Positions 2,012 through 32,000 of a DNA stretch of 32,000 nt are shown here, piece after piece. The translations under genes and the position numbers were made by a program. Positions within the stretch are counted from its first letter, which is position 1. Each line of letters starts with the position of its first letter. The stretch spans positions 660,001 to 692,000 of the forward strand of contig NC_013202.1 of assembly GCF_000023965.1 (NCBI RefSeq), in the 5' to 3' direction. This stretch comes from Halomicrobium mukohataei DSM 12286. Its GTDB lineage: Archaea; Halobacteriota; Halobacteria; Halobacteriales; Haloarculaceae. The notes under the pieces are model-generated. The model had not been told where the DNA came from, did not search any database, and saw only the letters and a program-made list of their open reading frames with translations.

Positions 2012-2082
2012 TGCGCCGTCCGGGAATTGAACCCGGGCTATTAGCTTGGGAAGCTAATGTCCTACCACTGGACCAACGGCGC
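2012..2082 (-). tRNA. tRNA-Gly (anticodon CCC)
   Basis: Reverse strand folds as GCGCCGT-TG-GTCC-AGTGGTA-GGAC-A-TTAGC-TTCCCAA-GCTAA-TAGC-CCGGG-TTCAATT-CCCGG-ACGGCGC-A. This gives a 7-bp acceptor, 4-bp D stem, 5-bp anticodon stem, a 7-nt loop with CCC at positions 34-36, a 5-bp T stem and discriminator A. No CCA is encoded. Confidence 0.85.
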
Positions 2083-3473: not shown

Positions 3474-6164
3474 TCAGATCTCCTCGTAGAGCTCGACGAC
3501 GTCGTCGAAGTCGATCTGGCCGTTGTCGTTGAAGTCGTAGGCCTCCGGATTCAGGCGGACAGCGTCGGAGTCGATCGTCTCGAACAGCAAGACCACGTCG
3601 TCGTAGTCGACCCGGCCGTTGCCGTTGACGTCCTCGTAGCGCCCGTCGCTGTCGGGGTCTTCCGGGACAGCGCCGCCGCCGGCCGCGGGAGGTCCGGTGA
3701 TGACGAGACCGCGGCGAGTTTCGACGCCGATCTCGACGCCCGCCTCGTCGTCGATCGTTTCGACGGACACCGCGAGGTCCGTCGTGCCGGGAGCACTGCC
3801 GGTGACTTCGACGCCGGCCAGCGTCACGTCGAGTGAGCCGGGCTGGATCGAGCGCTCGATGTCGCCGACTCGAATCGTCGCGCTCGAACCGTCGTCGGCG
3901 ACGCTGACCTTCTGCAGGCCGATCGCGTCGGGGAAGGTCACGTCGGAGATCGCCGCGACCTCGGGATCGGTGAGCGAGACGGTGAACTCCCCACCGGCGA
4001 ATCCACCCGGCGCGGCGTTCATCGTGAGATCGACGGTGCCGGTCGACTCCGGGGAGACGGCGACGGCCGAGGCGTCGAGGATCGCGTCGGGCTGGTAGAC
4101 GTACAGCCCGTCGTTGGGGTACGAACGGGCGGGGCCGCCGAAGCCGTCCTCACAGCAGAGCACGCGCCCGTCGTCCATCACGTAGACGTTGTCGATGTTG
4201 CGCAAGGCGTCGTCGGCGTCGGCGGCCGGATCGGTGAAGTCGGGGCCAACGATCACCGGCTCAAGCGTCGAGACGTTGTAGTCTCGTTCGAGCTGGCCAC
4301 GGTAGACGACGCCGCCGTCGACGCGGTCCATCTGGACGTCGCCCTCGTCGTCCGCGAGAGCGTCGTTGAACTCCGCGATGCCGAAGTAGACGAAGTCACC
4401 GGGGCTAACACCTTCCCGGCTACTGACGCCTTCGGCCTTGTTGAACTCGATGGAAGCACCGATCTCCTTCGCCGCGGCGCGCGTTTCGAGGAAGGGCACC
4501 CGCCGGAGTTCTTCGTCGACGTTCTCCGGGCCGTTCTGTTCGTACTGGTCGGCCCACTCGACGATCTCGTCGTTCGTGATGTAGTTCTGGTTGCCGTCCT
4601 CGACGACGGCTTTGTCGGCCTCTTCGAGCGCGGTCGCCAGGTCGTCGGTCCAGTCGGTCTCGGCGTGGGCTTCGAGGTACTCTTCCTGGGTCACGTCGTC
4701 GTACTCGGCGATCCAGGACTCGATTTCGGCGTTGCTGGCGTGACCGAGCTCCAGCCACTCGATCTCCAGAGAGACGGCCGCCGGAGAGTCGCGCTCGCCG
4801 CCGTCGGCGACCGATGCCGCGTCGTTGGTGATCTTCGGCGCGTACAGGGTCCCCTCGACGTCCATCGGGTTCTCGTAGCTCGGGATCGGCTCGTCGGCGA
4901 CGAACTTGTAGATGCCCTTGCTGTCGCCGTCCGAGCAGCCGTAAACGGTTCGCTCGTCGGGTAACACGTCCGGTGCCTCCCAAGCGGTCCGTCCCATCAC
5001 GTAGTACTTGATCGGCTCTGGGGTCTCCGCGGCCGGCTCCCGGAAGTCGACGTGGTAGCCGTAGCGGTAGGGGTTGGGGTACACGTCGCCGATCGGATTC
5101 GTCGTGTTGTTCTCGTTGTCGCCGGTCTGGTCGACCTGTTCCGCACCGAGGTAGTACGCGAGGAACTCGACGCCGTCCAGCGCCCAGTACCCCTGGACGA
5201 ACCACGAGTCGTCGCCGTAGTAATCGTCGATCGCGCTCTGGATGCCCACCGGGTTCGGCCGGTTCCAGAATGCCGCGCCGCCGACGAGACCCTTGCCGGT
5301 GCCGGCCGCCTCGATGTCGCCAACCGTGCCGGTCAGGGACACTCGCGTATGGGCGTAGTTCTCCTCGGAGGAGAGCATCGTGTTCCACGGGCTGCGGTCG
5401 CCGTAGCAGTTGATCCGCGTCCCGCCGAGTTCGCGGAGCGGTTCCGTGTTCGCCAGGTTCGTGGCGTTCTCCAGGTCCGCCTCCCACTCGCCTTCCTCGG
5501 TCCGGCTGACGGGCAGGCGAGTGACGTTCCCCGGACTGTTCTCCCAGTTCGTGTAGAGATACCCCTCCGTCCCGTCGTCGTTCGTCGGGATGAACTGGTT
5601 GCAGTCGGGGTTGGTCGCGGCCGCGCCGTACTGGGTCCCCGCGAAGTTGTCCTGCGTGATCTCGGTGCCGTCGGGGGTCTGGACGACGCCGAACCGCTCG
5701 TCGCCGCCCTGAATCTCTTCCCGAGCGTGCGCGAGGAAGACGTACTCGCCCTCGGAAGAACGGATCCGTCCCTGTTCGTCGACCGTCGAGGGAACCGACA
5801 GCTCGGAGAAGTCGTCGTTGTCGCCGTCCAGTTCGAACGTGAAGCCACTGAAGTAACCCACCCCGGCCCGGTCGAAGGGCGCTTCGTTGGCCTTCACGTC
5901 CGAGTTTTCGAAGTCGCCGCCACGGTCACCCGTCGCGGGGTGTTGGTTGCTGTAGAGGAGACTGCCGTCCTGAAAGACGAACGGTCCAGTCACTTCCGCG
6001 CCGAAGGAGGTCGTCGAGAACCGCTTCAACGACCCGTTCACGCCGGGCGCACCCGGCGTGTCCGATTCACCCACTTCGTCACCACTCGCGACACCCGCGA
6101 CGCTCGCACCGAGCGCCGCTGCCACCGAACTCGCCATTAGATTCCGTCGATTGAGATCTACCAT
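3474..6164 (-). CDS. Tat-secreted PhoX-family (DUF839) phosphatase-like protein with C-terminal cohesin-like and dockerin modules
   Basis: Twin-arginine leader MVDLNRRNLMASSVAAALGASVAGVASG. Core segments GTRINCYGDRSPWNTMLSSEENY, GRTAWEAPDV..IYKFVAD and NIDNVYVMDDGRVLCCEDG resemble the PhoX/DUF839 blocks (NCAGGxTPWGTxLxxEEN etc.). A cohesin-like module lies at about nt 3666-4076. The C-terminal 63 aa (nt 3477-3665) carry two dockerin Ca-binding repeats, DVNGNGRVDYDDVV and DFNDNGQIDFDDVV. Confidence 0.8.
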   Translation of the reverse strand: MVDLNRRNLMASSVAAALGASVAGVASGDEVGESDTPGAPGVNGSLKRFSTTSFGAEVTGPFVFQDGSLLYSNQHPATGDRGGDFENSDVKANEAPFDRAGVGYFSGFTFELDGDNDDFSELSVPSTVDEQGRIRSSEGEYVFLAHAREEIQGGDERFGVVQTPDGTEITQDNFAGTQYGAAATNPDCNQFIPTNDDGTEGYLYTNWENSPGNVTRLPVSRTEEGEWEADLENATNLANTEPLRELGGTRINCYGDRSPWNTMLSSEENYAHTRVSLTGTVGDIEAAGTGKGLVGGAAFWNRPNPVGIQSAIDDYYGDDSWFVQGYWALDGVEFLAYYLGAEQVDQTGDNENNTTNPIGDVYPNPYRYGYHVDFREPAAETPEPIKYYVMGRTAWEAPDVLPDERTVYGCSDGDSKGIYKFVADEPIPSYENPMDVEGTLYAPKITNDAASVADGGERDSPAAVSLEIEWLELGHASNAEIESWIAEYDDVTQEEYLEAHAETDWTDDLATALEEADKAVVEDGNQNYITNDEIVEWADQYEQNGPENVDEELRRVPFLETRAAAKEIGASIEFNKAEGVSSREGVSPGDFVYFGIAEFNDALADDEGDVQMDRVDGGVVYRGQLERDYNVSTLEPVIVGPDFTDPAADADDALRNIDNVYVMDDGRVLCCEDGFGGPARSYPNDGLYVYQPDAILDASAVAVSPESTGTVDLTMNAAPGGFAGGEFTVSLTDPEVAAISDVTFPDAIGLQKVSVADDGSSATIRVGDIERSIQPGSLDVTLAGVEVTGSAPGTTDLAVSVETIDDEAGVEIGVETRRGLVITGPPAAGGGAVPEDPDSDGRYEDVNGNGRVDYDDVVLLFETIDSDAVRLNPEAYDFNDNGQIDFDDVVELYEEI

Positions 6165-7763: not shown

Positions 7764-8273
7764 ATGAAGATAAACAGAAATTGGAAGACTATCGCGATAG
7801 ATCCGAGAAGATCGCTCGTCCCAGCAACCATCGTCCTCATTACCGGCGGTTTTCTATCGTTCGCCACGCACACGAATACCATCTCTATTCCTAGCTCATT
7901 ACGAATACTAAATATAACCTCTATTGTTGCGTTCCCGGTCATCGTTGGAACTCTCTCCTACACGTATTTCCGAACTGAGGTGTCGCTGTGGGAGATCCCA
8001 GTAGTATTCTTGTGGGGGTACATTAGTAACAACATTGTTTTGTTTATTTTGTTCTTCGCGACACTCGATTCAGCGGTATCATCAACCGCATCGCCTGGCA
8101 GTGTCGGTGTCTCCCGAGGGCTTTGGTATCTCAAATTTTTCGCACTTAGTTCCGCTACGTACTCGCTGTTATATGGATTCGCGGCAGCGCGTCACCGCAT
8201 CCTCCGCATTCTATTCTTTATTTTCACACCTATTTTGTACTGTATTATTATGATCGCTCTCTTAGTTATATAA
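7764..8273 (+). CDS. hypothetical polytopic membrane protein (169 aa, about 5 TM)
   Basis: Hydrophobic stretches SLVPATIVLITGGFLSFA, ILNITSIVAFPVIVGTLSY, IPVVFLWGYISNNIVLFILFFATL, LWYLKFFALSSATYSLLYGFAAA and ILFFIFTPILYCIIMIALLVI. A canonical TATA sits at the correct distance. AT-rich codons unlike the neighbours. Confidence 0.5.
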   Translation: MKINRNWKTIAIDPRRSLVPATIVLITGGFLSFATHTNTISIPSSLRILNITSIVAFPVIVGTLSYTYFRTEVSLWEIPVVFLWGYISNNIVLFILFFATLDSAVSSTASPGSVGVSRGLWYLKFFALSSATYSLLYGFAAARHRILRILFFIFTPILYCIIMIALLVI

Positions 8274-8510
8274 ATACTCTTTCTACCGGGATCGATCGTC
8301 CGACAGTACTTGCAGTAACAAGCATCCCATAGCGCGGCAGGTGTCTGTGTTCTCGTCGGCGCTGTCTGCACGCTGTCGGCTGGACGGACGTTCGAGTCGA
8401 AACGATGGGGCAACCGCTATTCGATCGAAAACGGAGAGAAACCGCGTTTTGCGGACGATCCGGGGGTCAGAGTACGGCCCTTGGGGTGATGTGTTGTTCT
8501 AGACCGAACT

Positions 8511-10202
8511 TCACATCATGCCGCCCATGCCGCCGCCCATGCCGCCCATGCCGCCGCCCATTCCGCCGGGCGCGCCGCCGGGGCCGCCGGGTGCGTCGTC
8601 CTCGTCGTCGTCGCTGCCGCCACCCTTGAGGTCGCCGGCAGCGATCACGTCGTCGATGCGCAGGATCATCACGGCCGCCTCGGTGGCGGACTCGATGGCC
8701 TGGGTCTTGACGCGGAGCGGCTCGACGACGCCGTCCTCGGTCATGTCGACGACTTCGCCGGTGTAGGCGTCGAGACCGGCGGTGTTGTCGCCGCCGTCGT
8801 GCTTGCTGCGCAGGTCGACCAGCGAGTCGATCGGGTCGAGACCCGCGTTCTCGGCGAGGGTGCGCGGGACGACATCGATGGCGTCGGCGAAGGCCTCGAC
8901 GGCCAGCTGCTCGCGGCCACCGACGGAGTCGGCGTGGTCGCGCAGACCGAGTGCGAGCTGTGTCTCGGGGGCACCGCCGCCGGGCAGGACCTTGCCGTCC
9001 TCGAGCGTGGCGGCGACGACGCCGAGCGAGTCCTCGATGGCGCGCTCGACCTCGTCGGCGACGTGTTCGGTGCCACCGCGGAGGATCATCGTGACGGACT
9101 TGGCCTCGTCGACGTCCTCGACGAAGATGCGCTCGTCGCCGGCAACGTCCTTCTGGGCGACCGAGCCGGCGAAGCCGAGGTCGTCCTCGGTCACGTCGGC
9201 GATGTTCGAGACGATGCGAGCGCCGGTCGAGCGCGAGAGGGCCTTGATGGTGGACTTCTTCGCACGGCGGACGGCGAGGATGCCCTCCTGTGCGAGGTAG
9301 TGCTGGGCCATGTCGTCGATGCCCTTCTGGGTCACGACGACATCGGCACCGGCCGCTTTGAGGTCATCGACCATCTCCTTGAGCTGCTCCTCTTCCTGGT
9401 CGAGGAACTGCTGGAGCTGGTCCGGGTCAGTGACGTTGACTTCGGTGTCGAGTTCGGTCTCGGGGACCTCGATCGCGGTGTCGAGCAGCGCGATGTTGGC
9501 GTCCTCGACGGCGTAGGGCATGTTGTCGTGGACGCGCTCCTTGTCGATGATGACGCCCTCGACGAGCTCTGACTCGTCGGTGGAGCCACCGACGACGACC
9601 TCGAGCTGGATGTTGTCGGTGTCGACCTCGCCGTCGTCGGCGACGGACTGTGCGGCGCGAACGACGAGTTCGGCGAGGACGTCCTTGGAGGATTCCGCGC
9701 CCTTGCCGGTCATCGCCGTCGCGGCGACCTTCTTGAGCATCTCGGTGTCCTCGGGGCCGACCTCGATGGCCTGCTCTTCGAGGATCTCCTTTGCCTTCTC
9801 GGCGGCCTGGCGGTACCCCTGTGCCAGGATGGAGGCGTGGATGTCCTGGTCGATGAGGTCCTCGGCTTCCGAGAGGAGTTCGCCGGAGATGACGACCGCG
9901 GTCGTCGTGCCGTCGCCGACCTCGTCTTCCTGGGTCTGGGCGACTTCGACGATCATGTTGGCCGCGGGGTGCTCGATGTCCATCTCGTCGAGGATGGTGA
10001 CACCGTCGTTGGTGACGACGACGCCGCCGGAGTCGTCGACGAGCATCTTGTCCATGCCCTTCGGGCCGAGTGTCGTCCGTACGGCCTCCGCGACGGCCTG
10101 TGCGGCCGTGATGTTCATCGACTGTGCGTCCTTTCCGGAGGTTCGCTGGGAGTCCTCTCCCAGCACGATCATGGGCTGACCCTGCATCTGGCGCTGACTC
10201 AT
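8511..10202 (-). CDS. thsA: thermosome subunit (group II chaperonin, CCT1/alpha-like)
   Basis: [23 protein letters not shown]...[15 protein letters not shown]...[37 protein letters not shown], plus a C-terminal [18 protein letters not shown] tail. Confidence 0.95.
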
Positions 10203-10226
10203 ACGTCCGATTGATTGAATGTGCTT

Positions 10227-10236
10227 CTATATAAAG
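10227..10236 (-). promoter_or_regulatory. TATA box of the thermosome gene
   Basis: The reverse strand reads CTTTATATAG, 25-34 nt upstream of the ATG at 10202. Confidence 0.5.
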
Positions 10237-10397
10237 ATTGTGGACCCGGAAGCCAGACCGCCGGAAAGACAGCCCAGCCCGCATTTGACAAGGGTTGTCA
10301 CAGTGGTTTTAAATACGATATCGCGAGCGGCCACGAGCGCGCCTCGTGACGGCGCTGTGGCTGGGCTCAGTCGAGACCGACGGAAGCGGCGCGGGGG

Positions 10398-10946
10398 TCA
10401 CCCGTGGAACTGGTGGTAGTTCAGTCCCTTCTGTTTCATCTCGTTGTGCTTGCGTTCGAGGAAGGAGTAGACCGAGCCGTGGGGTGCGCCTTCGAGCAGC
10501 ATCTCGGCGGCCTCACGGACGGCATCGACCTGTTCCGGACCACCGATGATCCCCAGCGTCGAGCCGTAGATCACGACAGACGCACCCGTGAGTTCCTCCA
10601 TGAGCTCCCGGGTCCGACCGCCCTCGCCGATGAGGCGTCCCTTCTGTCGAGTGAAGTCGTTCTGGTTGCGAGAGGCGGCGTCGATGTCGACCACGTCGAA
10701 CATCATCATCTCGTCGTCCAGCAACGCGAGCGCGTCCTCCGGGTTGAAGCCGCGACCGATCGCCTTCACGATGTCGGGGCCTTTCAGTCCCGTGATCGGG
10801 TCGCCGACGGACTCGACACCCACCGAGCCGGATTCGGAGTCGATATCGAGGCGAACTTCGGCTCGGTCCTCGATCTCGCGCATGGTCTCACCCCCTTCGC
10901 CGATGAGTACGCCGATGCGGTCCTGCGGAATCTTCACGTGTTGCAT
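10398..10946 (-). CDS. KH domain RNA-binding protein (archaeal Dim2/Pno1-like)
   Basis: Two KH-like GxxG loops (IGVLIGEGGETMREIE and KGRLIGEGGRTRELMEE). Located immediately downstream of rio1 and aIF-1A, the conserved archaeal arrangement. Confidence 0.85.
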   Translation of the reverse strand: MQHVKIPQDRIGVLIGEGGETMREIEDRAEVRLDIDSESGSVGVESVGDPITGLKGPDIVKAIGRGFNPEDALALLDDEMMMFDVVDIDAASRNQNDFTRQKGRLIGEGGRTRELMEELTGASVVIYGSTLGIIGGPEQVDAVREAAEMLLEGAPHGSVYSFLERKHNEMKQKGLNYHQFHG

Positions 10947-11001
10947 AATATGTTGCGAGCTACTGTATCCGGACAGTTAAGCGTTCGTCTGTGGCCGTCA
11001 G

Positions 11002-11922
11002 CTACCCGTCGGCTGCCTCGTCGGCCCGCGTGACCGTTGCGAGCAGGTCCTCGGCGGTCACGTCCACGCCCTGTCGTGCGAAGAAGTTCGCGACGTTCTC
11101 ACAGTCCCGTTCGAGGTAGTCTCGCGCATTGCCGTGGTGGACCGTCACGGCCTGGCCCAGGTCGATGACGACGAGCTGGCCCTCGTGGAACACGATGTTG
11201 TACTCCGAGAGGTCGCCGTGGACGAGTCCCGCGTCGTAGAGGCGGCGCATGTACTCCCTGACGACCTCGAAGGCCGTCTCGGGGTTCTCGATGTGGACTT
11301 CGTTGAGCCGCTTGGCACGGCCGTCCTCGGTCGCGATGTACTCCATGACGAGAACGTTGCGCTGGACGGCGATCGGATTCGGCACGCGGACGCCCGCTTT
11401 CTGGGCCCGCTGGAGGTTGGCGAACTCCTTGCGAACCCACGCGGTGACGACCTTCTTCTTGTCCGAGCCGATTCCCTCGAAGCGCGGGTCACCGTCGAGA
11501 TACCCCCGCATGTCGCGGAAGTCCGAGGCGTTGATCCGGTAGACCTTGACCGCGACCTCCTCGTCCCGTGGCTCTCCGTCGCCGCCCGACTGTCCCGAGG
11601 CGCTGCGCGCCTCGCTGTCGCCGGCCAGTGCGGTGTAGACGTTCGCCTCCTTGCCCGTCGAGATGGGACCGCCGAAGGCGTCGATGTGTCCGTCCTGAAC
11701 CAGTTTGTACAGCGCGCCGTACGTGGCGTCGTCGAACACCGACGCCGTCACTTTGAACTGCTCGGTGTTCTTGATCCGCTTGCGAAACTCGCTGAACTCG
11801 CGGTCGCGCGTCCGCGCGATCTCGTCTGCCTCGGTGTCAGAAACGTCGATCGACTCCCACTCGTCACCGACGCCGTCGGCCTCCTCGGTGTCGACGAGCC
11901 CGAAGTCGCCGTCGTCGCTCAT
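11002..11922 (-). CDS. rio1: RIO1-type serine protein kinase
   Basis: GPISTGKEANVYTA (P-loop-like), VAVKVYR, LVMEYI, LVHGDLSEYNIV (catalytic loop) and VIDLGQAV (metal-binding loop). Confidence 0.9.
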   Translation of the reverse strand: MSDDGDFGLVDTEEADGVGDEWESIDVSDTEADEIARTRDREFSEFRKRIKNTEQFKVTASVFDDATYGALYKLVQDGHIDAFGGPISTGKEANVYTALAGDSEARSASGQSGGDGEPRDEEVAVKVYRINASDFRDMRGYLDGDPRFEGIGSDKKKVVTAWVRKEFANLQRAQKAGVRVPNPIAVQRNVLVMEYIATEDGRAKRLNEVHIENPETAFEVVREYMRRLYDAGLVHGDLSEYNIVFHEGQLVVIDLGQAVTVHHGNARDYLERDCENVANFFARQGVDVTAEDLLATVTRADEAADG

Positions 11923-11967
11923 CGGTCGCCCCCGAACGGTGGCGGCGTCATGTGTGCGTGGCCATCG

Positions 11968-12255
11968 TTACTCCTGGATGTGGCCCTCTTCTTTGAGCTG
12001 GTCGGCCTCCTGCTTGTCGTAGCGCCAGGTGATGTCGGCCTTCTCGTCTTGCCAGTCCCACGGTTCGACGAGGACAACGTCGTCTTCGCGGATCCAGATG
12101 CGCTTTTGCATCTTCCCGGGGATGCGAGCGGTGCGTTCGACGCCGTCCATACAGCGTACTTTGACGCGGTTGGCTCCGAGCATGTTCGTGACGATGGCGA
12201 ACACCTCGTCGTCTTCGGGCATCCGGAGGTTCTTGCGGCCTTCGTTGTCGCTCAT
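11968..12255 (-). CDS. eif1a: translation initiation factor aIF-1A
   Basis: Trimmed to the internal ATG at 12255: [79 protein letters not shown] (S1-like OB fold of IF1A). Confidence 0.9.
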
Positions 12256-12362
12256 ACGCCACCTTTTGATGGCGAACGGTTTAAGGCTTGTACGGTTTTG
12301 ACCGAATCGACTCGTCCAGCGAGTGGCAACGCCCAAGTTCCCCTTGGGCCTACGACCGGGCG

Positions 12363-12773
12363 ATGAGTACGACGCTGCCCGAGGAAGCCGACGAGTGGGT
12401 CGCCGAGTGGCACGGTGCGCTGGCCGACCGGCCGGCCTTCGCCGAGGCGGCCGCCGACTTCGCCGCGACCTTCCGCTTCGAGATCACGCCGGACGACGCG
12501 TACGACGGCGATCCGATCGTCGTCCGACTGGTCGTCGACGACGGGGCGTGTCCCGTCGCCGAACTCGCAACGGAGTTCGACTACGACTTCGCGCTCCGTG
12601 GTCCCTACGAGGCCTGGAAGGCGATGTTGCGGGGCGAACTCGACGCGGCCGAGGCCGTCATGGACGGCCCCTTCAGAGTCGAGGGGAACACGATCGAGTT
12701 GCTCCAGCATCAAGAGGCCGTCGCGGAGCTCGTGCGGGCAGCCCGAGACGTGGACACGACGTTCGCGCACTGA
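12363..12773 (+). CDS. SCP2 sterol-binding domain-containing protein
   Basis: Trimmed to the ATG at 12363 ([12 protein letters not shown]...). The C-terminal ..[33 protein letters not shown] resembles the SCP2 fold signature. Confidence 0.7.
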
Positions 12774-12947
12774 GAGTCGTCGTTTCGCTCGCTCGATCGG
12801 CTATGTTCAAATAAGTGGCCACAGGACAGGCGTACAGGCAGGGGAACACTCGCTTTGCTCATCTCTCGACACTGCTTCGCTGACCGCAGTATCTTGTTGG
12901 ACCACCGCAACGACGACGACAGCACTACGAACGCATCCTGGCTGTTA

Positions 12948-13130
12948 TCACAGATACTGATATATCCCCCAGAATAATAGAGCGACTCCCAAGAAAAAGA
13001 ACGCTGCCGTTGGAATATCGTACGTGATTATATCTAGCAACCGCAAAACACCGTACGCGAGTAAGAGTACACCAAAAACAAAGACAGAGATCGTCACCAG
13101 GCTAGTCTTTTTATCTGAATTTTGAGTCAT
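12948..13130 (-). CDS. hypothetical small two-TM membrane protein (60 aa)
   Basis: MTQNSDKKTSLVTISVFVFGVLLLAYGVLRLLDIITYDIPTAAFFFLGVALLFWGIYQYL has two clear hydrophobic helices. It has its own TATA at the right distance. Short, so coding status is unproven. Confidence 0.45.
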   Translation of the reverse strand: MTQNSDKKTSLVTISVFVFGVLLLAYGVLRLLDIITYDIPTAAFFFLGVALLFWGIYQYL

Positions 13131-13152
13131 TAATTAGTGAATTTCAGTAGAT

Positions 13153-13163
13153 CTACATAAAGG
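13153..13163 (-). promoter_or_regulatory. TATA box for the 60-aa membrane ORF
   Basis: The reverse strand reads CCTTTATGTAG, centred about 28 nt upstream of the ATG at 13130. Confidence 0.4.
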
Positions 13164-13346
13164 TCCCGCTTTATTTTTCATCCCGTGCACAGAAAGCCCG
13201 GTTCTATTCGAAGGTGGATGCTGTAAGTTGGGCGGCGATGCCCTCTGTAGCGTTGCTGGAACAGTTCGGAATGAAACAGTCCGTCTGTCTACTTCACGAA
13301 CGACAGGGTGAATACGACCCACTCTCTGCGCCTTCGCGTCTAAAGG

Positions 13347-14120
13347 TTACTCTGACTGTGAGTGGACCGTCGGCGTTGCTGTAATAGGTGCAGCAATGAC
13401 AGCAGGGGTGATCCGCGACTTCACAACGACTCCGCAACCGTTATTCTGCAAATTAATAGTTCCAATATATATTGCGACTATCCCGCCAAGAGCGACGGTA
13501 AGCGGGTTGGACATCGAGCCAATCACACCTGCACTTTTCAGGGTTGCAGCAACGACTGCTGCCGAACCACTCCCGATCGACCCGAGAGCATTGAGATCGT
13601 CGATAGTGGAATCACTCATGTACAGTTCGACATCCTTTCGAGTTCCGCCCCACTTCGTGTCGACGTTCGAGTCGTCTCTATTACATCCCAGAGCGGTGAT
13701 CTCCGATGTCTCACCCAGATCTGCCGACTCAAGAGAGGTTGTAGAGGGGCTCTCGACGGAGTCTACCGCTTTAGCTATTTCCGACGGCTCAGAATGGACC
13801 TCAAAATCACCTCCTTGGTCTGCCGAGTCGGCCGTGAGAGTTTCCTGTTCGCTTGTCGTGAAGGTTATGTGTCCTGCTTCGATCGCCAAATTAAAGCTCT
13901 TGACAACGTGTGTGAACTGTTTGTGTAGTTCACGCCCGATATCTTCAGGCTCGGCGTCGAGTACAACTTTCCCATCTTCGATCACGATCCAGTCGATTGC
14001 GGGATCTTCTGTGGTAGTCGATGTGGACTCTGCTCCCCCAAGACCACTGCTAACTATTCCGCCAAGCGTTGAACCGGTGAGAGCCATCATAGCCCGCCGA
14101 TTGAGATGTCTTTTTGACAT
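13347..14120 (-). CDS. Tat-signal precursor protein with acidic pro-region and Gly-rich hydrophobic C-terminus (function unknown)
   Basis: MSKRHLNRRAMMALTGSTLGGIVSSGLGGA has a twin-arginine motif and an h-region. The middle is acidic and Ser/Thr-rich. The C-terminal part is ..ALGCNRDD..LNALGSIGSGSAAVVAATLKSAGVIGSMSNPLTVALGGIVAIYIGTINLQNNGCGVVV... The track start is 14129 (MEVM..). The ATG at 14120 fits the TATA spacing better. Confidence 0.65.
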   Translation of the reverse strand: MSKRHLNRRAMMALTGSTLGGIVSSGLGGAESTSTTTEDPAIDWIVIEDGKVVLDAEPEDIGRELHKQFTHVVKSFNLAIEAGHITFTTSEQETLTADSADQGGDFEVHSEPSEIAKAVDSVESPSTTSLESADLGETSEITALGCNRDDSNVDTKWGGTRKDVELYMSDSTIDDLNALGSIGSGSAAVVAATLKSAGVIGSMSNPLTVALGGIVAIYIGTINLQNNGCGVVVKSRITPAVIAAPITATPTVHSQSE

Positions 14121-14140
14121 CACTTCCATTCAAAATCAAT

Positions 14141-14152
14141 AGATTAAAATAG
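14141..14152 (-). promoter_or_regulatory. TATA box for the Tat-precursor gene
   Basis: The reverse strand reads CTATTTTAATCT, centred about 26 nt upstream of the ATG at 14120. Confidence 0.45.
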
Positions 14153-14364
14153 TTTTTGGTTTTTACTTTTTGAGATATGATTATAGAACAGATATAGGAG
14201 TGAAGTAGCCTCTCAGTGGTCCGCCAGTATCTTGCTCTGGTCAATTGCAGACACAGAAAGAAATCGGAGACTGCTCTTCGAAAACGGGTTCGAATCAGAT
14301 CGAAGAGACGCAGCTGTCGCCGCGGACCACAGCCCTTACCTCCCTCCCTCGCACCAGTCGGAGT

Positions 14365-14565
14365 ATGTTCGACAAACTCGGGATCGCCGGTCTCCTCGGC
14401 GTGGTCGTCATGCTTGGCGGCATCGCGCTGGTCGCGTGGCAGGCACCTATCGTCGCCGCCGGCATCGCCTTCGTCGTCGCCGGCCTCGGACTGATCGTCT
14501 ACGGGATGGTCACGAACCTGATGAGCGCCTTCGGCCTCGGCGGCGGCATGGGCGGGATGCCCTAG
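14365..14565 (+). CDS. hypothetical small membrane protein (66 aa, 2 TM, Gly/Met tail)
   Basis: Trimmed to the ATG at 14365: MFDKLGIAGLLGVVVMLGGIALVAWQAPIVAAGIAFVVAGLGLIVYGMVTNLMSAFGLGGGMGGMP. GC3-rich codons. Confidence 0.55.
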   Translation: MFDKLGIAGLLGVVVMLGGIALVAWQAPIVAAGIAFVVAGLGLIVYGMVTNLMSAFGLGGGMGGMP

Positions 14566-16538
14566 CTCTCGGGCCGGTCGGCGCGGTGCTCGCTGATGAT
14601 CTGGTCGACCATCTCCGCGTTTTGCTCCCGTTTCCGTTCCTCGGCGCGCTCCTCCCAGTCCTCGATGGCAGCCTCGACCTCGTGGTCGCGAGCCACCGCG
14701 AGTTCGTCGACCTCCTGGACGGTCACCATCTCCGCGGGCGCGACGGGAATCCCGTGGTCGAAGAGAATCTCGTCGGCCACATCTGAAAGGCCGCCGTTTC
14801 GCAGGACGATCCGCGGGTTCACGTCCGCGAGGCGCTGGGCAGTCGAGCGGCCCGCGCCCGAGGCGTCCCGCAGCAGGATCACGTCGTCCTCGACGAGACC
14901 GACCGCCTCGTCGGCGCTCTCGATGGCACCGGAGGTGAACTGTTCGATCACTTTCACCGACACCAGTCCCTCCTGTTTCTCCGACACGTCCGCGAAGTTC
15001 GAGTGATCGAGCTTCCACAGCCCCTTGAGCCGTTCGAGCTTCGCTTCGAGGGCCTCGCGGTCCTCGCGTTCGGCTTCGAGTTCGCGTTCGAGACGCTCGT
15101 TTTCCCGCTGGAGGCGCGTGACCTCGCGGTCCTTGCGCACTTCGCGGCGTTCCTCGCTGCGGGCCTGTGAGAGTTCCCGCTCTTTCTCCGCGAGCCGGTC
15201 GTCTTTCTGCTGGATCGTCGCCTCCAGATCGTCGACGTGGCCCTCCAGGCGCTCGACGCGGGCTCGCAGCCGTTTGATCTCCTTCTCCTCTTCGGTGAGT
15301 TCGCGGGGCGTGTGTTCGGTCTGTTCGTCGCCGTCGTCACCGTCGTCTGAGAGATCGTCGAGGACGCTCTCGACGGACTCCTCGCCAGCGACGACACGGG
15401 CGGTCACCTCGCCCACGTCCTCGCGGGGCGGGACCTTCTCGGCGATGCGCTCGAACTGGTCGGCGTGGTCGTCGTAGGCCCCCAGCGCTGCCGCCATCGC
15501 GTCGCGCTCGTGGTCGTTGTCGTACCCCTCCTCGCGAGTGCGGTGTTGTTTCACGTCGATCGCGAGGTCGCTGTCTGGCGTCCACCCCGCAGCGCTGAAC
15601 GAGCGGCGCAGCTTCTCGACGGTCTCCGGCATCGGCGTCACGTCCGCCGCGACGACGATGGGCCGGCCCCGCTCGACGATCCACTCGGTGACGCCCGCGG
15701 CGTCGACGGTCCGCGAGGAGTACACGTCCAGGACCTCGCCGTCGAGCCCCACGATCGCGACGGCCGTCGTCGTCCCGGGATCGACGCCGACGACGACGTG
15801 GTCGCGCCGCTTGGCCAGCGGTCGGAACTCGATCCCGTCGCGGCGCTCGCGCTCGATCTCGACGCGCACGTCGCCCGAGCGCATCCGCGAGACGGGGATG
15901 TCCTGGGGCCGGGCAGAGACCGTAAAGAGCGCCTGCGAGAAGCCGCCGTACTTCTCGGTGACCTCGCGCTCGTAGTCGAGGCCGGCGTCGTCCAGTTCCG
16001 ACTCGACCGAGCGAGCGCGCTGCTTGACCGAGCCGTGGATCCGGCGAGTGTAGCGGTCCTCGGACCAGCCGCCACCGCCGCCCGTCGAGCGACCGCGAGC
16101 GACCTTCACCTCGGTCGTGTCGGTGAAGGCCGACACCTCCTGCCCGACGTTGGCCGCGGCGAGCCGTGCGGCCGCTTCCGCCTCTTTCATCGGCTCCTTG
16201 CCGTAGGGGACTCCGTGACGAGAGGCCACCCGAGAGAGGGGTTCGGGCTGCTCGGCACCGGTCACCTGGACGAGCTTGGTCTCGTCGGGGAGGCTGCCCA
16301 GGAAGTGGACGAGCGCGTCCTTGTCCGCCGCGAGTTCGTACATGTTGTCCGTCGCGACGATCGACGGCTCCACGTCGTCGATCAGCCGCCGGAGCTTGCG
16401 CAGGCTCACCACGTCGCGCTCGATCTCCTCGCCGTCGAACACGACCAGCGCGTAGGAGGGTGCGTCCCCGCGCACGTCGCCACTCTGGATGTCGACACCG
16501 AAGACAACCGCGTCGAGCGCCCCGGTACGCGTGTTCAC
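14562..16538 (-). CDS. DUF460 / COG2433 protein (predicted RNase H-fold nuclease with coiled coil)
   Basis: 658 aa. HVVVGVDPGTTTAVAIVGLDGEVL and ..DHERDAMAAALGAY resemble RuvC/YqgF-type motifs. A long E/R-rich coiled coil (EEEKEIKRLRARVERLEGHVDDLEATIQQKDDRLAEKERELSQ...) is followed by a C-terminal globular part. This matches the archaeal DUF460 architecture as I recall it. Confidence 0.8.
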   Translation of the reverse strand: MNTRTGALDAVVFGVDIQSGDVRGDAPSYALVVFDGEEIERDVVSLRKLRRLIDDVEPSIVATDNMYELAADKDALVHFLGSLPDETKLVQVTGAEQPEPLSRVASRHGVPYGKEPMKEAEAAARLAAANVGQEVSAFTDTTEVKVARGRSTGGGGGWSEDRYTRRIHGSVKQRARSVESELDDAGLDYEREVTEKYGGFSQALFTVSARPQDIPVSRMRSGDVRVEIERERRDGIEFRPLAKRRDHVVVGVDPGTTTAVAIVGLDGEVLDVYSSRTVDAAGVTEWIVERGRPIVVAADVTPMPETVEKLRRSFSAAGWTPDSDLAIDVKQHRTREEGYDNDHERDAMAAALGAYDDHADQFERIAEKVPPREDVGEVTARVVAGEESVESVLDDLSDDGDDGDEQTEHTPRELTEEEKEIKRLRARVERLEGHVDDLEATIQQKDDRLAEKERELSQARSEERREVRKDREVTRLQRENERLERELEAEREDREALEAKLERLKGLWKLDHSNFADVSEKQEGLVSVKVIEQFTSGAIESADEAVGLVEDDVILLRDASGAGRSTAQRLADVNPRIVLRNGGLSDVADEILFDHGIPVAPAEMVTVQEVDELAVARDHEVEAAIEDWEERAEERKREQNAEMVDQIISEHRADRPES

Positions 16539-23906: not shown

Positions 23907-25763
23907 ATGATCGCCGGCAGCTGGATCGTCGTCGCGTCGCTGGCCTCGGGTGCCGGAACGCTGTTGCTGATCTGGCGGCTCTGGCGCTACCGCGAGAAGC
24001 CGGGCGCGACGTGGTTCCTGCTGTCACTGGTCTGCCAGGCGCTGTGGAGCGTGAGCTACGCCGTCTCGCTGCTGGTGTTCGACGAGACGATCCGGCTGGC
24101 CCTGGAGGTGCTCGGCTGGGCGTTGCTGGCCGGAATCGCGGTGTACTTTCTCGCGTTCGCGCTGGCCTACACCGGGCGCGACCACGTCGTCGAGACGCCG
24201 TGGTATCGGGCGCTGCTGACGCTGCCGGCCGTCGCCGTCGTCCTGCTGGGCACGAACCCGTGGCACGGGCTCGTCTGGGACGACTTCTCCGTCGTGGCGG
24301 TGGCGGGACTGGCGGGAACGGCCTACGAGCTGGAGCTGTGGGCAGTGGCGGTGGCCACCGGCGGCGTGCTGATCGCGCTACTGGGCAGTCTGGTGCTGTT
24401 CGACACCGTCGTCAGCTACGGGCGACTGTACCGCCGAGAGGCGATCGCCGTCGGCGTGAGCACGGTCCCGCCGCTGTCGGCGGTCGTCCTCTGGCTCTAC
24501 GGCGTCGGCCCGGTCCCCGAGCTGAACTTCGCGACAGTGCTTTTCCTGCCCCACATCGCGCTCGACGCCTACGCGTTCGTCCGCAGCGACATGTTCGAGT
24601 TCCACCCGGCGACCCGACGGGAGGGCGAGCGTGCCGCCATCGAGGACCTCGGGAACCCCGTCGTCGTCGTCGACGAGCACGACCGGATCGTGACGCTCAA
24701 CGCCGCTGCCGAGGCGGTCCTGAGCGTCGAGAAGGCGCGGGCACTGACCGAGCCACTGGCCGCGTTCCTGACCGACGAGACGTTTGCGGGCCCCGACACG
24801 ACCGATCGCGTGACGATCGAGACGGGGAACCGCCGACGGACCTACAGCCTCGCGACGACCCCGCTGACCGGCAGCGGTGATCGGCTCGGCTCGACGATCG
24901 TCCTGCAGGACATCACCGAAGAGATCGAGCGCGAGCAGCGCCTGCAGGTGCTCAACCGCGTCGTCCGGCACAATCTCCGCAACGACATGACGGTCGTCCG
25001 CGGGTTCGCCGAGGCCGCGAACGAGGCGACCGACGACGCGGAGGTCTCGGAGCTGCTCGACACCGTCGAGGGGAAGGCCGACGACCTCGTCGATCTGGGC
25101 GAGAAGGCGCGCGCCATCGAAGGCATTCTCGGCGCGGATCGACGGGCGACCACCGTCGAGCTATCGGCGCTGCTGGCCGACGCCGTCGACGAGGTCGACG
25201 CCGACGTACCCATCGCGGTCGACGCCCCCGACACGGCCGTGACGATCGACGCCGACACGCTCCGGGTGCTGTGTGTCGCGCTCGTGGAGAACGCCGTGGA
25301 GCATGGCTCCACGAGCCCCGAGTCCGAAACTCCTCGGGACGCCGTGGAACACGGTCCCACGAGCCCTGACTCGCCTACTCCTCGGGACGCCGTGGAACAC
25401 GGTCCCACGAGCCCTGACTCGCCTACTCGTCAGGACGCCGTGGAGCATGGCTCCACGAGCCAAGACGGTCGGTACCCCGATGGGACCGACGCGACCGCGC
25501 CCGTCCGGGTCACCGCAACGGCGCACGACGGCGGCATCGAGATCGCCGTCGCCGACGACGGGCCGGGAATCCCCGACCACGAACTCGACGTGCTGGCAGC
25601 CGGCGAGGAGACCGATCTGGAACACTCCACCGGACTGGGGCTGTGGCTCGCCTCGTGGGCGACCCGGCGGCTGGGCGGAGATCTCGACTTCGCGGTCGAC
25701 GACGGCACGACCGCGCGGCTGTGGCTCCCGGTCGAAGAAGCCCGCGAGCAGTCGGCCGCCTAA
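23907..25763 (+). CDS. sensor histidine kinase (N-terminal 7TM-type membrane domain, PAS, HisKA, HATPase)
   Basis: About 7 N-terminal TM helices. PAS-like ..[24 protein letters not shown]... H-box [17 protein letters not shown]-box ENAVEHG. G-boxes DDGPGIP and STGLGLWL. Confidence 0.85.
25293..25461 (+). repeat. 48-bp in-frame tandem repeat (about 3.5 copies) inside the kinase ATPase domain
   Basis: Units start at 25293, 25341, 25389 and 25437. Copies 2 and 3 differ only in cctcgggac versus cgtcaggac. The encoded sequence is [16 protein letters not shown] / [16 protein letters not shown] / [16 protein letters not shown] / [11 protein letters not shown]. Confidence 0.9.
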
Positions 25764-29237: not shown

Positions 29238-30242
29238 GTGTACGTCCTCGAACTCGCCGGCCAGGACGATCGCTTCGCAGCCAGGGAAGCGGCCAGCGCG
29301 GCGACCGACGTGAGCCTGCTCGCGCCCGGACTGGCGACCGCACGCGGGATCACCGACCGGGTGCGCACCCTCGCGTTCACGCGGCGGGCCAGCGAGCTGC
29401 TCGCCACCTGCGAGCCGACCGTCGACAGCGCCAGCGCGACCCTCGACGCCGCAAACGTCGACCGCGCCGGCAGCGTCGCCGTCCGCGCGGTCGACGTTCG
29501 GTCGACGACCGGGATCGACACCGAGCGCGCCGAGCGCGAACTCGGACAGCGACTGGTCGATCGGGGCTTCACGGTCGACCTCGACGATCCGGACCACGAA
29601 CTCCGGGCGCTGTTCTCGGCGGGCCACCAGCAGGCCACCGACGCCAGCGAAGTCGCCGACGACGCCGACGGCGTCTGTGCGCTTGGCTGGCTGGCGGCCA
29701 CCTCCCGCCGAGACTACGGCGAGCGCGCGCCGATGGACCGACCCTTCACCCAGCCCGGCAGCATGGACCCGATGGAGGCCCGCGCGATCGTCAACATCGC
29801 GGGCGCACGTCCCGGTCGCCGCGTCGTCGACCCGATGTGTGGCACCGGCGGCGTCCTCATCGAGGCCGGCCTGGCGGGGGCCGACGTGGTCGGGACCGAC
29901 GCACAGGAAAAGATGGTCCGCGGCGCGCGCGAGAACCTCGACACGTTCCTCGACGACTTCGCCGTCGCCCGTGCCGACGCCACCGCTCTCCCGCTCCGGG
30001 ACGACGCCGCCGACGCCGTCGTCTTCGACGCCCCCTACGGCCGCCAGTCGAAGATCGAAGGCGAACTGGACGCCGTCGTTTCGGGTGCGCTGGCGGAGGC
30101 CCGCCGGATCGCTCCGCGGGCGGTGGTCGTCGCCGACCGGTCGTGGGAAGCAGCCGCCGAGGAAGCCGGCTGGACGGTCGAGGACCGCTTCGAACGGCGG
30201 GTGCATCGCTCGCTCGTGCGCCACGTCCACGTGCTTGAGTAA
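29238..30242 (+). CDS. trm11: THUMP-domain tRNA (guanine(10)-N2)-methyltransferase (archaeal Trm11/Trm-G10 type)
   Basis: GTG start. VYVLELAGQDDRFAAREA.. resembles an N-terminal ferredoxin-like/THUMP region. SAM motif I is VVDPMCGTGGVLIEAG and motif IV is VVFDAPYG. Confidence 0.8.
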   Translation: MYVLELAGQDDRFAAREAASAATDVSLLAPGLATARGITDRVRTLAFTRRASELLATCEPTVDSASATLDAANVDRAGSVAVRAVDVRSTTGIDTERAERELGQRLVDRGFTVDLDDPDHELRALFSAGHQQATDASEVADDADGVCALGWLAATSRRDYGERAPMDRPFTQPGSMDPMEARAIVNIAGARPGRRVVDPMCGTGGVLIEAGLAGADVVGTDAQEKMVRGARENLDTFLDDFAVARADATALPLRDDAADAVVFDAPYGRQSKIEGELDAVVSGALAEARRIAPRAVVVADRSWEAAAEEAGWTVEDRFERRVHRSLVRHVHVLE

Positions 30243-30350: not shown

Positions 30351-30692
30351 TCAGTCACCTTGGAAGAGATTTACTAGAGTGGTCCCAGCCCACCACAGAG
30401 AAACGAGAGCGACCAGACCGCCAAACCAAGCAGGGATGTCGGTGCTGATGAACATAACGGCTCCTCCGGCGATCCCGATGGCGAAGATCCCCAGCTGAAC
30501 GTACCGTATGTCGTTATTCGTGGTATCGACCGTCGCGAAGGCCAGGAAAACGAGCGTGACGACTACAGGGCCGATAACTGACGTGAAAACATCTCCCGTT
30601 GTCAGATACAGAACGATCGCGACTGCCGGGATAATCATCACTTCCTTCAGTTCTACTCGCTGAACGAGTCTTCCGATAGCAGATTTTACCAT
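30351..30692 (-). CDS. hypothetical 4-TM membrane protein (113 aa from the ATG; the track start 30707 is a GTG)
   Basis: MVKSAIGRLVQRVELKEVMIIPAVAIVLYLTTGDVFTSVIGPVVVTLVFLAFATV...YVQLGIFAIGIAGGAVMFI..IPAWFGGLVALVSLWWAG. Same strand as, and downstream of, the halocin-like gene. Confidence 0.5.
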   Translation of the reverse strand: MVKSAIGRLVQRVELKEVMIIPAVAIVLYLTTGDVFTSVIGPVVVTLVFLAFATVDTTNNDIRYVQLGIFAIGIAGGAVMFISTDIPAWFGGLVALVSLWWAGTTLVNLFQGD

Positions 30693-30710
30693 ATCGATCG
30701 TTCTCACCCA

Positions 30711-30721
30711 ACATAAATATC
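30711..30721 (-). promoter_or_regulatory. TATA box for the 4-TM gene
   Basis: The reverse strand reads GATATTTATGT, centred about 24 nt upstream of the ATG at 30692. Confidence 0.4.
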
Positions 30722-30817
30722 ATTTTCGGGATAAATGCTATCTGTCATTTATTACTGATTCTCTTTTTTGTCCGGGGTATGAAAAATAATCCGGTCAGTG
30801 GTCGATAATGCTACCTG

Positions 30818-31822
30818 TCAGCAGCCGAACGCAGCTTCGCAAATAATTACTGGCGCCGCTGCACAGAGGGCCGCTCCTTGGACAGTGGTCACGTAGCGAC
30901 AGAATACGCCACAGGCTGCTGCCAGTACTGGATAGGTCGACGTGAGCGGTAGACACCGAGTCGCACAACCGTAGAACCCAAGCTGGCCAACGCCAGCGCA
31001 GATCGCGGGAATGACCGCCTTGCAAGTTGTACAGCCAATTTCTCCGTGGATGCTCTGTGGGCTGACATGGTTGTGATCTCGGTAGCTCTCAACCACCTCG
31101 GGCGTGACGCTGGCTGGGAGGTCCGTACTCTGAGCACTTATTGTATCGACTGACGGAGCCTCGGGCAGTTGTCCGGTTCGTTGACTCTGGACGATTCCGT
31201 TACCCTCTTGATGGCTGAAAAACTCATATGCAACTCGGCTCTCCGAGTCGTCGTCGGGTCGCCCACTTTTGGATGAACGGCTGACACTCGTTGGATCATC
31301 GTGAAGGGTGACCGCACTGGCAGAGACTGGGACTCGACCGGTTCCGTCGCTGGACTGGACTGAGAGGCCCGAGTCGATCTCGGTGTCCGGTTCGTCAACC
31401 ACCCCAGCGAAGAGAACACCGAGATCCTTCGGAGTGGTATTCTCCCATGAGGCGTCGGGTTCCTTCAGGAGTGAGACAGCTAGTGACGGATTAAGTGAGT
31501 TCATCCTTTTGTGCTGGCTCTCAATTTCGATCGACAGGGGGAGCACGTCTTCCACTGTCCGTCCCGTCTTTTCACTCACCGTCTGGCGGAGTTCGCTAAG
31601 CGCGTCAGAGTTCTTGATGACGGAGAGATCGTCGTGAGCCGCCGAACGAAGCTTAAATTTGGAGCCTGCGAATTCCTCACTAGCCTTGCCGGGCCCAGAT
31701 GAGCCTCGGTCCGCTGTGGCGATACCGACACCACCGAACAGACTAGCACCGGCTGCAACTCCCCGAAGCATTTTCCGCCGATTCATGTCACTGCTAGCAC
31801 CGATTTCATTGTCAAACGGCAT
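30818..31822 (-). CDS. halocin C8-like bacteriocin precursor (Tat signal, pro-region, 10-Cys C-terminal peptide)
   Basis: SSDMNRRKMLRGVAAGASLFGGVGIATA is a twin-arginine leader. The C-terminal 72 aa are GCTTCKAVIPAICAGVGQLGFYGCATRCLPLTSTYPVLAAACGVFCRYVTTVQGAALCAAAPVIICEAAFGC. They are hydrophobic, contain 10 Cys, and the last residue is Cys. The opening G-C-x2-C-K-x6-C, a central C-x13-C and the closing C-x5-C-end match the halocin C8 pattern as I recall it. Confidence 0.75.
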   Translation of the reverse strand: MPFDNEIGASSDMNRRKMLRGVAAGASLFGGVGIATADRGSSGPGKASEEFAGSKFKLRSAAHDDLSVIKNSDALSELRQTVSEKTGRTVEDVLPLSIEIESQHKRMNSLNPSLAVSLLKEPDASWENTTPKDLGVLFAGVVDEPDTEIDSGLSVQSSDGTGRVPVSASAVTLHDDPTSVSRSSKSGRPDDDSESRVAYEFFSHQEGNGIVQSQRTGQLPEAPSVDTISAQSTDLPASVTPEVVESYRDHNHVSPQSIHGEIGCTTCKAVIPAICAGVGQLGFYGCATRCLPLTSTYPVLAAACGVFCRYVTTVQGAALCAAAPVIICEAAFGC

Positions 31823-31844
31823 GCGTTCATATGTTATACACCCG

Positions 31845-31856
31845 CTATTTAAAAAT
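31845..31856 (-). promoter_or_regulatory. TATA box of the halocin-like gene
   Basis: The reverse strand reads CATTTTTAAATAG, centred about 28 nt upstream of the ATG at 31822 (leaderless spacing). Confidence 0.5.
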
Positions 31857-32000
31857 GTTGGTTCAAAATATTAAGTATAATTAATAATCTCTATCTGCTA
31901 TTTATCATTATCTTATTCTGTACAGAATATATTTATACAAGTGCGTACGTGTTGGCCAAAAATTTCGTTGCAATGTCTGTTACTTGTCGTTCCTCTCCTG

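Follow-up and report, generated by a model that had tools for sequence, protein, structure and literature searches.

A probable two-gene archaeocin cassette in Halomicrobium mukohataei, with a divergent halocin C8-like precursor and a small membrane partner

Halocin C8 (HalC8) is the textbook case of a toxin and its immunity protein that are produced from one gene. We analyzed a stretch of 32,000 nucleotides from Halomicrobium mukohataei DSM 12286 (contig NC_013202.1, positions 660,001 to 692,000 of the forward strand; hereafter the window), which near its high-coordinate end carries two adjacent genes on the reverse strand, one for a precursor protein and one for a small protein with four transmembrane (TM) segments. 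We propose that this locus is probably a horizontally acquired two-gene archaeocin cassette, in which a precursor exported by the twin-arginine translocation (Tat) pathway is paired with a candidate immunity or regulatory partner. As judged from a chain of profile comparisons, the C-terminus of the precursor belongs to the halocin C8-like superfamily as a divergent member. A whole C8-like branch lies below the threshold of the model for this domain (TIGR04449) and is labelled hypothetical, and it has a different pro-domain and a constant small membrane neighbor. It raises the question of whether the immunity of C8-type archaeocins always comes from the pro-region or may come from a separate membrane partner, and a two-gene cassette of ~1.5 kb suffices for addressing that question. 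The locus also adds candidate archaeal antimicrobial peptides.

Precursor architecture and relation to halocin C8

The initial annotation had described the precursor as a 334-residue product with a Tat leader that ends in a 72-residue hydrophobic peptide with 10 cysteines, and our reading of the open reading frame (ORF) matches that description, including the Cys spacing. Residues 13-37 (MNRRKMLRGVAAGASLFGGVGIATA) contain a twin-arginine motif and a hydrophobic stretch followed by A-T-A, and reading of the sequence identified a twin-arginine signal in a region that includes MNRRKMLRG. The Tat model TIGR02811 matched the precursor weakly, Tat models matched several of its relatives, and an NRRxxLK motif could be aligned over 33 family members. 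The last 72 residues (G263-C334) hold the 10 Cys in the arrangement C-x2-C-x7-C-x10-C-x3-C-x13-C-x3-C-x11-C-x7-C-x5-C, with the final Cys as the last residue of the protein. This C-terminal peptide is hydrophobic (grand average of hydropathy, GRAVY, ~+1.1) and has a predicted isoelectric point (pI) of ~7.6-8.1, near-neutral to basic. AlphaFold2 (AF2), supplied with a 33-sequence alignment, modeled residues 261-332 as four helices, at lower confidence than the pro-domain discussed below. In 19 of 37 sequences, the first Cys is preceded at 5-10 residues by a [VI][STN]x[QK] motif, typically VSTQ and, in the window protein, VSPQ. VSTQ-like motifs can also be read in the canonical proteins of Halobacterium and Haloferax larsenii. 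The motif is a candidate processing signal.

We placed the C-terminal peptide by way of its relatives. A word-indexed search returned seven close relatives (46-60% identical) from Natrinema spp. and Logan assemblies, all 10 Cys being kept in the six that are full-length. These proteins are annotated 'hypothetical protein', and the close clade is rare, comprising 7 proteins among 5.8 billion. An exhaustive search of 1.84 billion representatives with a profile of the clade recovered 34 proteins at E<=1e-3, which are ~240-340 residues long and share a Tat motif, an alignable N-terminal pro-region and a Cys-rich C-terminal domain. TIGR04449 is the NCBIfam model of the halocin C8-like domain, with a curated cut-off of 24 bits; 12 of the 31 family members scanned passed it with 25.5-39.5 bits (P0019, P0021, P0022, P0024, P0026, P0027, P0029, P0031, P0032, P0034, P0035 and P0036). 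Several members, P0027 among them, have a ten-Cys spacing near-identical to that of the window protein.

Profile-profile alignment joined these groups. Using hhalign in local mode with a permutation control (an alignment made with -glob was meaningless and was discarded), the C-termini of the window clade matched those of the rest of the family with 99% probability and an E-value of 4.9e-18. The rest of the family in turn aligned end-to-end with four canonical HalC8-type C-termini with a score of 18.4, a value reached by none of 100 column-permuted controls (mean 10.4, sd 1.9). As read from that alignment, 9 of the 10 Cys columns coincide with two indels, while the seventh Cys is off by four residues, or about one helical turn.

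Direct comparisons with HalC8 were weak. The window protein scored 12.6 bits (E 0.21) against TIGR04449, below the cut-off, in an end-to-end alignment that spans residues 264-334 and all 69 model positions (1-69), whereas a positive control, the HalC8-like protein P0008 of Natrinema gari, scored 51.9 bits. P0008 reads ...DIDITGCIACKYAAGK...NRVGLC, holds 10 Cys and is 91% identical to what we take to be the mature HalC8 sequence; the HalC8 traits that the initial annotation had cited (10 Cys, the opening and the ..GLC end) agree with this real protein. BLASTP of the window C-terminus against P0008 was not significant (E 0.61), and the alignment that it produced pairs the GC..CK opening, the C-x7-C, a TYPV/TIPV motif and the C-x13-C. 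Relative to composition-preserving shuffles, global alignment scores of the window peptide against canonical peptides had z values of 0.2-2.0 (p ~0.04-0.4), while the number of aligned Cys was marginally higher (7-9 vs a shuffle mean of 4.3, p ~0.001-0.05). Likewise, direct hhalign comparison of the window clade with canonical HalC8 gave z 0.6, indistinguishable from permuted controls. Because the window clade does not rise above chance against canonical HalC8, its homology to HalC8 is transitive only. Pairwise comparison with HalC8 (BLASTP, shuffles), being not significant, was dropped as stand-alone evidence.

Taken together, these comparisons place the window C-terminus, by a transitive route, as a divergent and sub-threshold member of the halocin C8-like superfamily. 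The earlier proposal of a halocin C8-type C-terminus thus stands through the family profile and is weak in the direct tests, while the elements it had listed as common to the two peptides (the G-C-x2-C opening, C-x7-C, C-x13-C and terminal C-x5-C) were recovered on comparison with HalC8-type peptides. Sub-threshold divergence explains the 'hypothetical protein' labels of the closest relatives, and for the same reason a census that requires TIGR04449 at its gathering threshold misses the clade. Current censuses of homologues include only proteins passing TIGR04449, as in a 2026 preprint (bioRxiv 10.64898/2026.07.27.741052).

The pro-domain and the downstream membrane protein

The HalI part of ProC8 is represented in Pfam by PF22862 (Hac8_like_N) (bioRxiv 10.64898/2026.07.27.741052). 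The initial annotation had found the pro-region not obviously HalI-like, a judgment that profile searches bore out. PF22862 had no match to the window protein at E<=1, none to 33 aligned relatives at E<=0.01 and none to three of these rechecked at E<=1, whereas canonical proteins scored 150-173 bits; the full-length positive controls, encoded on Haloferax volcanii pHV4 and on plasmids of Halobacterium salinarum and Haloferax larsenii, scored 152-173 bits. After removal of signal peptides, hhalign of the family against canonical pro-regions gave E 0.48, and reciprocal hidden Markov model (HMM) searches gave ~0 bits. With the signal peptide retained, hhalign reported a Tat-driven match (E 1.9e-5) that runs past the motif and covers the first strand of PF22862 and two helices (NSDALSELRQ/KSDEFDRLEA). 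AF2 modeled the pro-region as a confident alpha/beta domain (Table 1), for which Foldseek found nothing at E<=0.001 in PDB and BFVD, and conserved motifs of the pro-region extend over 33 relatives. By every sequence test available, the pro-region represents a domain family separate from HalI and common to all 34 representatives, although a remote fold relationship to HalI may exist.

The second gene, which the initial annotation had placed immediately downstream, is real and has a counterpart in all loci examined. Its ORF encodes 118 residues from a GTG at 30707 or 113 residues from an ATG at 30692. We preferred the ATG because all homologues align from it and because a TATTTAT sequence sits between the GTG and the region upstream of the ATG; this start also agrees with the Logan gene calls. 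Four hydrophobic segments were evident in a Kyte-Doolittle plot. Within the close clade (the window and loci L005, L006 and L008), a protein of 113-120 residues follows the precursor on the same strand after 100-140 nt and is 45-59% identical to that of the window; invariant motifs include TGD, GIAGG and IPxWFG. The same range of identity holds when L007 is included, and the flanking genes differ among these five loci.

More distant partners carry an additional domain. In L007 and L015, a homologous four-TM module is joined to an extension of ~100 residues with weak matches to TrmB/MarR-type winged-helix domains, and the partners in L009 (Haloterrigena salina), L016 and L019 have a multi-TM region at the N-terminus together with a winged-helix domain and a tail of the conserved form xxRPxRxL. 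The genes for these winged helix-turn-helix (wHTH) partners lie at L007:1639-2277, L015:1282-1911, L009:7037-7708, L016:1159-1821 and L019:3878-4492. Judged from their sequences, membrane-anchored wHTH proteins tied to halocin-like genes are an uncharacterized class. Smaller TM products were found elsewhere: a protein of 136 residues downstream in L021, two peptides of 43 and 64 residues in L017, and, at 4816-5001 in both L022 (Halorubrum trapanicum plasmid pCBA1232-01) and L023 (plasmid phalar01 of halophilic archaeon DL31), an unannotated but conserved two-TM ORF of 61 residues that lies 33 nt beyond the end of the halocin C8-like gene.

In each of the 13 family loci inspected, the precursor gene is directly followed on the same strand by a small membrane ORF; besides the window, L005, L006, L008 and L007, these loci are L009, L015, L016, L019, L021, L017, L022 and L023, with homologous or analogous TM partners. 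Two considerations count against reading this arrangement as evidence for an immunity function. The TM part of the partner is detectably homologous only within the close clade, so that the proteins at other loci are analogous rather than proven orthologues, and adjacency alone is weak evidence of immunity because small membrane ORFs are common. At the canonical loci of Halobacterium and Haloferax larsenii, the precursor has two-TM ORFs on either side. At the canonical locus of Haloferax volcanii pHV4, the PF22862-type gene is followed by a protein of 230 residues (L012:6329-7021), in which two TM helices at the N-terminus are combined with a Cys4 zinc-ribbon-like motif at the C-terminus; a divergent regulator of the MarR family is encoded upstream.

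Table 1. Features of the two-gene locus in window coordinates (pLDDT, predicted local distance difference test)
Feature	Start	End	Strand	Basis or remark
Low-GC islet carrying both genes	30300	32000		Extends ~80 nt past the window end; between the THUMP-type methyltransferase gene and the DUF7129/DUF359/spt4/rpoE' block
Precursor gene, 334 aa + stop codon	30818	31822	-	ORF and family searches; divergent-clade halocin C8-superfamily precursor
Predicted Tat signal peptide, residues 1-37	31712	31822	-	RR at residues 15-16; A-T-A before D38
Folded alpha/beta pro-domain, residues ~50-220, not of HalI/PF22862 type	31163	31675	-	AF2 pLDDT 85-96, HMM nulls and motifs in 33 relatives
Ser/Asp-rich, less conserved linker, residues ~221-257	31052	31162	-	Lower pLDDT and alignments; ends in the conserved EVVESY...VSPQ motif, a candidate processing region
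Predicted mature peptide region, residues 258-334, core G263-C334	30821	31051	-	10 Cys, hydrophobic, four predicted helices, ~7.2-7.9 kDa
Partner gene, 113 aa + stop codon	30351	30692	-	Four-TM membrane protein; candidate immunity or accessory protein
TATA-like box TTTTTAAATA	31846	31855	-	~28 nt upstream of the precursor ATG; sequence reading
Intergenic region, 125 nt	30693	30817	-	T5 run 30782-30786; TATA-like TATTTAT 30713-30719, ~24 nt upstream of the partner ATG

Promoter-like signals were assigned by reading the sequence. The T5 run that follows the precursor stop codon resembles an archaeal terminator signal. The TATA box ascribed to the partner gene by the initial annotation was seen, as TATTTAT, at the right distance, although a promoter of the partner's own is only plausible on this reading. 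Upstream regions of the relatives are likewise AT-rich, and A/T-rich boxes occur at the same distance in the intergenic regions of L005, L006 and L008, while DNA alignment of the upstream and intergenic regions revealed little conserved sequence. These signals are consistent with two leaderless (or very short-leader) haloarchaeal transcripts. A sigma-70/terminator scan was set aside as not relevant to archaeal promoters.

Islet, selection and competing explanations

Both genes lie in an islet of ~1.75 kb with a GC fraction of 0.33-0.61, compared to 0.70-0.75 in the flanks. On its low-coordinate side, a THUMP-type methyltransferase gene (29238-30242, forward strand; TIGR01177/UPF0020) is followed by a TBP gene. 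The position in an AT-rich islet beside a tRNA-modification gene, as put forward in the initial annotation, was thereby confirmed. The same annotation had raised the possibility of halU, halR or ATP-binding cassette (ABC) transporter-like genes beyond base 32000, where every gene found is of the housekeeping kind (DUF7129, DUF359, spt4, rpoE', a PIN-domain gene and eIF2-gamma). Together with the methyltransferase and TBP genes, such genes are all that the 10 kb on either side of the cassette contain, and none of the halU, halR (upstream) and halT1-3 ABC transporter (downstream) genes was present there.

The flanks of the cassette are wholly different in the window, Natrinema sp. DC36, Natrinema sp. 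1APR25-10V2, Haloterrigena salina and metagenomic contigs, and the pair therefore moves as a cassette. In Natrinema sp. DC36, it adjoins an IS240-type transposase. A search around the islet for att sites, target duplications and flanking direct repeats found no convincing ones. On composition and context, the two genes are best described as a horizontally acquired island. Scans for relatives yielded one match in GTDB representatives (one representative species), none in viral contigs and none in JGI metagenome contigs, and a plasmid scan yielded none for the window protein and none for the wHTH-bearing partner of L015. An identical precursor protein was found in several independent assemblies.

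Ratios of nonsynonymous to synonymous substitution (dN/dS, Nei-Gojobori) were lowest for the C-terminal peptide (0.06-0.15), with 0.2-0.3 for the partner gene and 0.25-0.5 for the pro-region, values that are qualitative only, as dS is saturated. Amino-acid identity to L005 and L008 was 81-83% in the peptide compared to 53-58% in the pro-region, and the peptide is 62-74% identical to that of more distant relatives. With dN/dS well below 1, both genes are being kept by selection, which constrains the peptide most strongly.

Additional genes accompany the cassette at some loci. In L006 (Natrinema sp. 1APR25-10V2, 11552-14608) and L009 (Haloterrigena salina, 8211-11278), it adjoins the same block of cobA, an ABC ATPase and a large permease, in opposite orientations, either because the two chromosomes share this neighborhood or because the cassette is functionally linked to an ABC transporter; the window has no such genes near its cassette. 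In two unrelated metagenomic loci (L019:1830-2681 and L021:260-1228), a gene for a DUF8054 protein is divergent and just upstream of the precursor; it is absent from the window and is possibly an additional accessory gene.

In the reading that we favor, gene 1 would give rise to a Tat-exported precursor consisting of a signal peptide, the alpha/beta pro-domain, the Ser/Asp-rich linker and a helical 10-Cys peptide of ~72-79 residues. By the precedent of HalC8, cleavage after export would take place near the conserved VSPQ-SIHGEIGC junction and would release a disulfide-locked, near-neutral peptide of ~7.2-7.9 kDa. HalC8 and what is known of bacteriocin operons suggest that the free peptide may attack the envelope of competing haloarchaea. 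The four-TM partner would be the best candidate for self-protection of the producer in the membrane; the cytoplasmic winged-helix of distant partners suggests a combined protective and regulatory role, and an ancestral winged-helix fusion would point to transcriptional control, the domain having been lost in the window clade. More tentatively, and with some doubt on our part, the locus may exemplify a second, hitherto undescribed precursor architecture of the halocin C8 superfamily, in which HalI was replaced by an unrelated chaperone or carrier pro-domain, while self-protection and the ancestral wHTH control moved to the fast-evolving downstream membrane protein. Such an architecture, if true, would be a different solution to producer immunity from the one-gene model of halC8.

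We weighed three other explanations. In the main one, the same toxin would have immunity of the ProC8 kind: the released pro-domain, a highly divergent counterpart of HalI, would bind and sequester the peptide, and the partner would assist in processing, export or regulation. In its favor, a well-folded pro-domain is conserved family-wide, and the hhalign match obtained with the signal peptide reaches into PF22862. Bacterial C8 homologues without a PF22862 match are reported to keep a HalI-like predicted fold (bioRxiv 10.64898/2026.07.27.741052). The wHTH domain of distant partners points to regulation, and small membrane ORFs adjoin canonical precursors too. This explanation is nevertheless unlikely in our estimation, given that PF22862 finds nothing at E<=1, that neither hhalign without the signal peptide nor HMM searches support a relationship, and that the window partner lacks a DNA-binding domain yet is under purifying selection.

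We regard it as improbable that the locus is not antimicrobial at all and encodes instead a Tat-exported surface or signaling protein, whose C-terminus is a membrane anchor or secreted signal and whose partner is a receptor or assembly factor. Profile-level membership in a family of which 12 of 31 members pass the halocin C8 model argues otherwise, as does a patchy distribution (low-GC islet, plasmids, beside transposases) typical of conflict genes, and the conserved motif just upstream of the Cys domain fits cleavage. In its favor, the C-terminus is hydrophobic enough for membrane insertion, with its GRAVY of +1.1 and four predicted helices, the wHTH partner resembles a one-component membrane sensor, and the direct link to HalC8 is weak. 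We give scarcely any credence to a silent or decaying transfer remnant with no current function in this genome. Foreign base composition, the rarity of the close clade across the collections searched and the truncation of a HalC8 copy in one Natrinema gari assembly, evidence that genes of this kind do decay, could all be cited for it; both ORFs are intact, however, with TATA-like boxes at the right distance, the identical protein recurs in independent assemblies, and dN/dS is 0.06-0.5 over homologues.

Two repeats were observed elsewhere in the window. A tRNA-Gly(CCC) gene (2012-2082, reverse strand) overlaps at its 5' end with a tandem repeat at 2072-2217 (55-nt unit, 2.7 copies, 97% matches), and the sequence upstream of this tRNA gene is therefore triplicated. 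Another tandem repeat, at 25291-25461 (48-nt unit, 3.6 copies, 86% matches), lies, by coordinate conversion, inside the gene for a 618-residue HisKA_7TM/HATPase sensor kinase, where it would encode a 16-residue protein repeat.

Comparison with known systems

Class II bacteriocin/immunity pairs consist of a toxin gene followed on the same strand by a gene for a small multi-TM protein, the two being mobile together. The window pair resembles them in gene order, strand and mobility, by analogy only, as there is no sequence relationship. In contrast to class II bacteriocins, the window precursor is large and predicted to be Tat-exported, carries its peptide at the C-terminus rather than behind an N-terminal leader, and has no dedicated ABC exporter or peptidase.

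HalC8 itself is a 76-residue peptide that depends on Tat export and on HalI for immunity (bioRxiv 10.64898/2026.07.27.741052). Its precursor ProC8 (halC8 of Natrinema sp. AS7092, UniProt P83716, with homologues in Natrinema, Haloferax and Halobacterium) shares with the window protein a Tat leader, a single polypeptide of ~280-340 residues with a large pro-region, and a hydrophobic C-terminus of ~72-76 residues with 10 Cys, which ends in C-x5-C and contains the G-C-x2-C opening, the C-x7-C and a C-x13-C with a conserved internal Pro. The two differ in several respects. The window pro-region is not PF22862/HalI, the middle Cys are spaced x10/x3 and x3/x11 in the window peptide vs x3/x7 and x7/x8, and the pI of ~7.6-8.1 contrasts with 4.2 for the HalC8-like peptide. 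The window locus lacks halR, halU and halT1-3 neighbors and has a dedicated four-TM partner.

The only match to HalC8 proper in the word-indexed protein index was the 114-residue Natrinema gari protein, P0008. On the Logan ERR481239 contig that carries its gene (L010:5800-6934), the upstream open frame lacks a Tat signal and retains no more of HalI than its final part, and this N. gari halC8 copy has probably decayed or been rearranged. As it is N-terminally truncated, the Haloferax and Halobacterium plasmid proteins served as full-length canonical references.

Since ~40% of the wider family carries the label 'halocin C8-like domain-containing protein', proteins of this kind are already known. 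In contrast, the distinct pro-domain, the obligatory membrane partner (with or without wHTH) and the sub-threshold clade appear to be undescribed in the literature accessible to us, which did not extend to Makarova et al. 2019. The known proteins in question, the subgroup that matches TIGR04449 without PF22862 (WP_197427780.1 on Halorubrum trapanicum pCBA1232-01, and P0019-P0036), differ from the window clade in that the latter scores 12.6 bits, has a longer pro-region with an extra Ser/Asp-rich insert, and is accompanied by a four-TM partner as opposed to a two-TM peptide or a TM+wHTH protein. Both nevertheless have the same Tat signal, pro-domain family and Cys-rich C-terminus, including the ten-Cys spacing of the P0027 type, and both are followed directly by a small membrane ORF.

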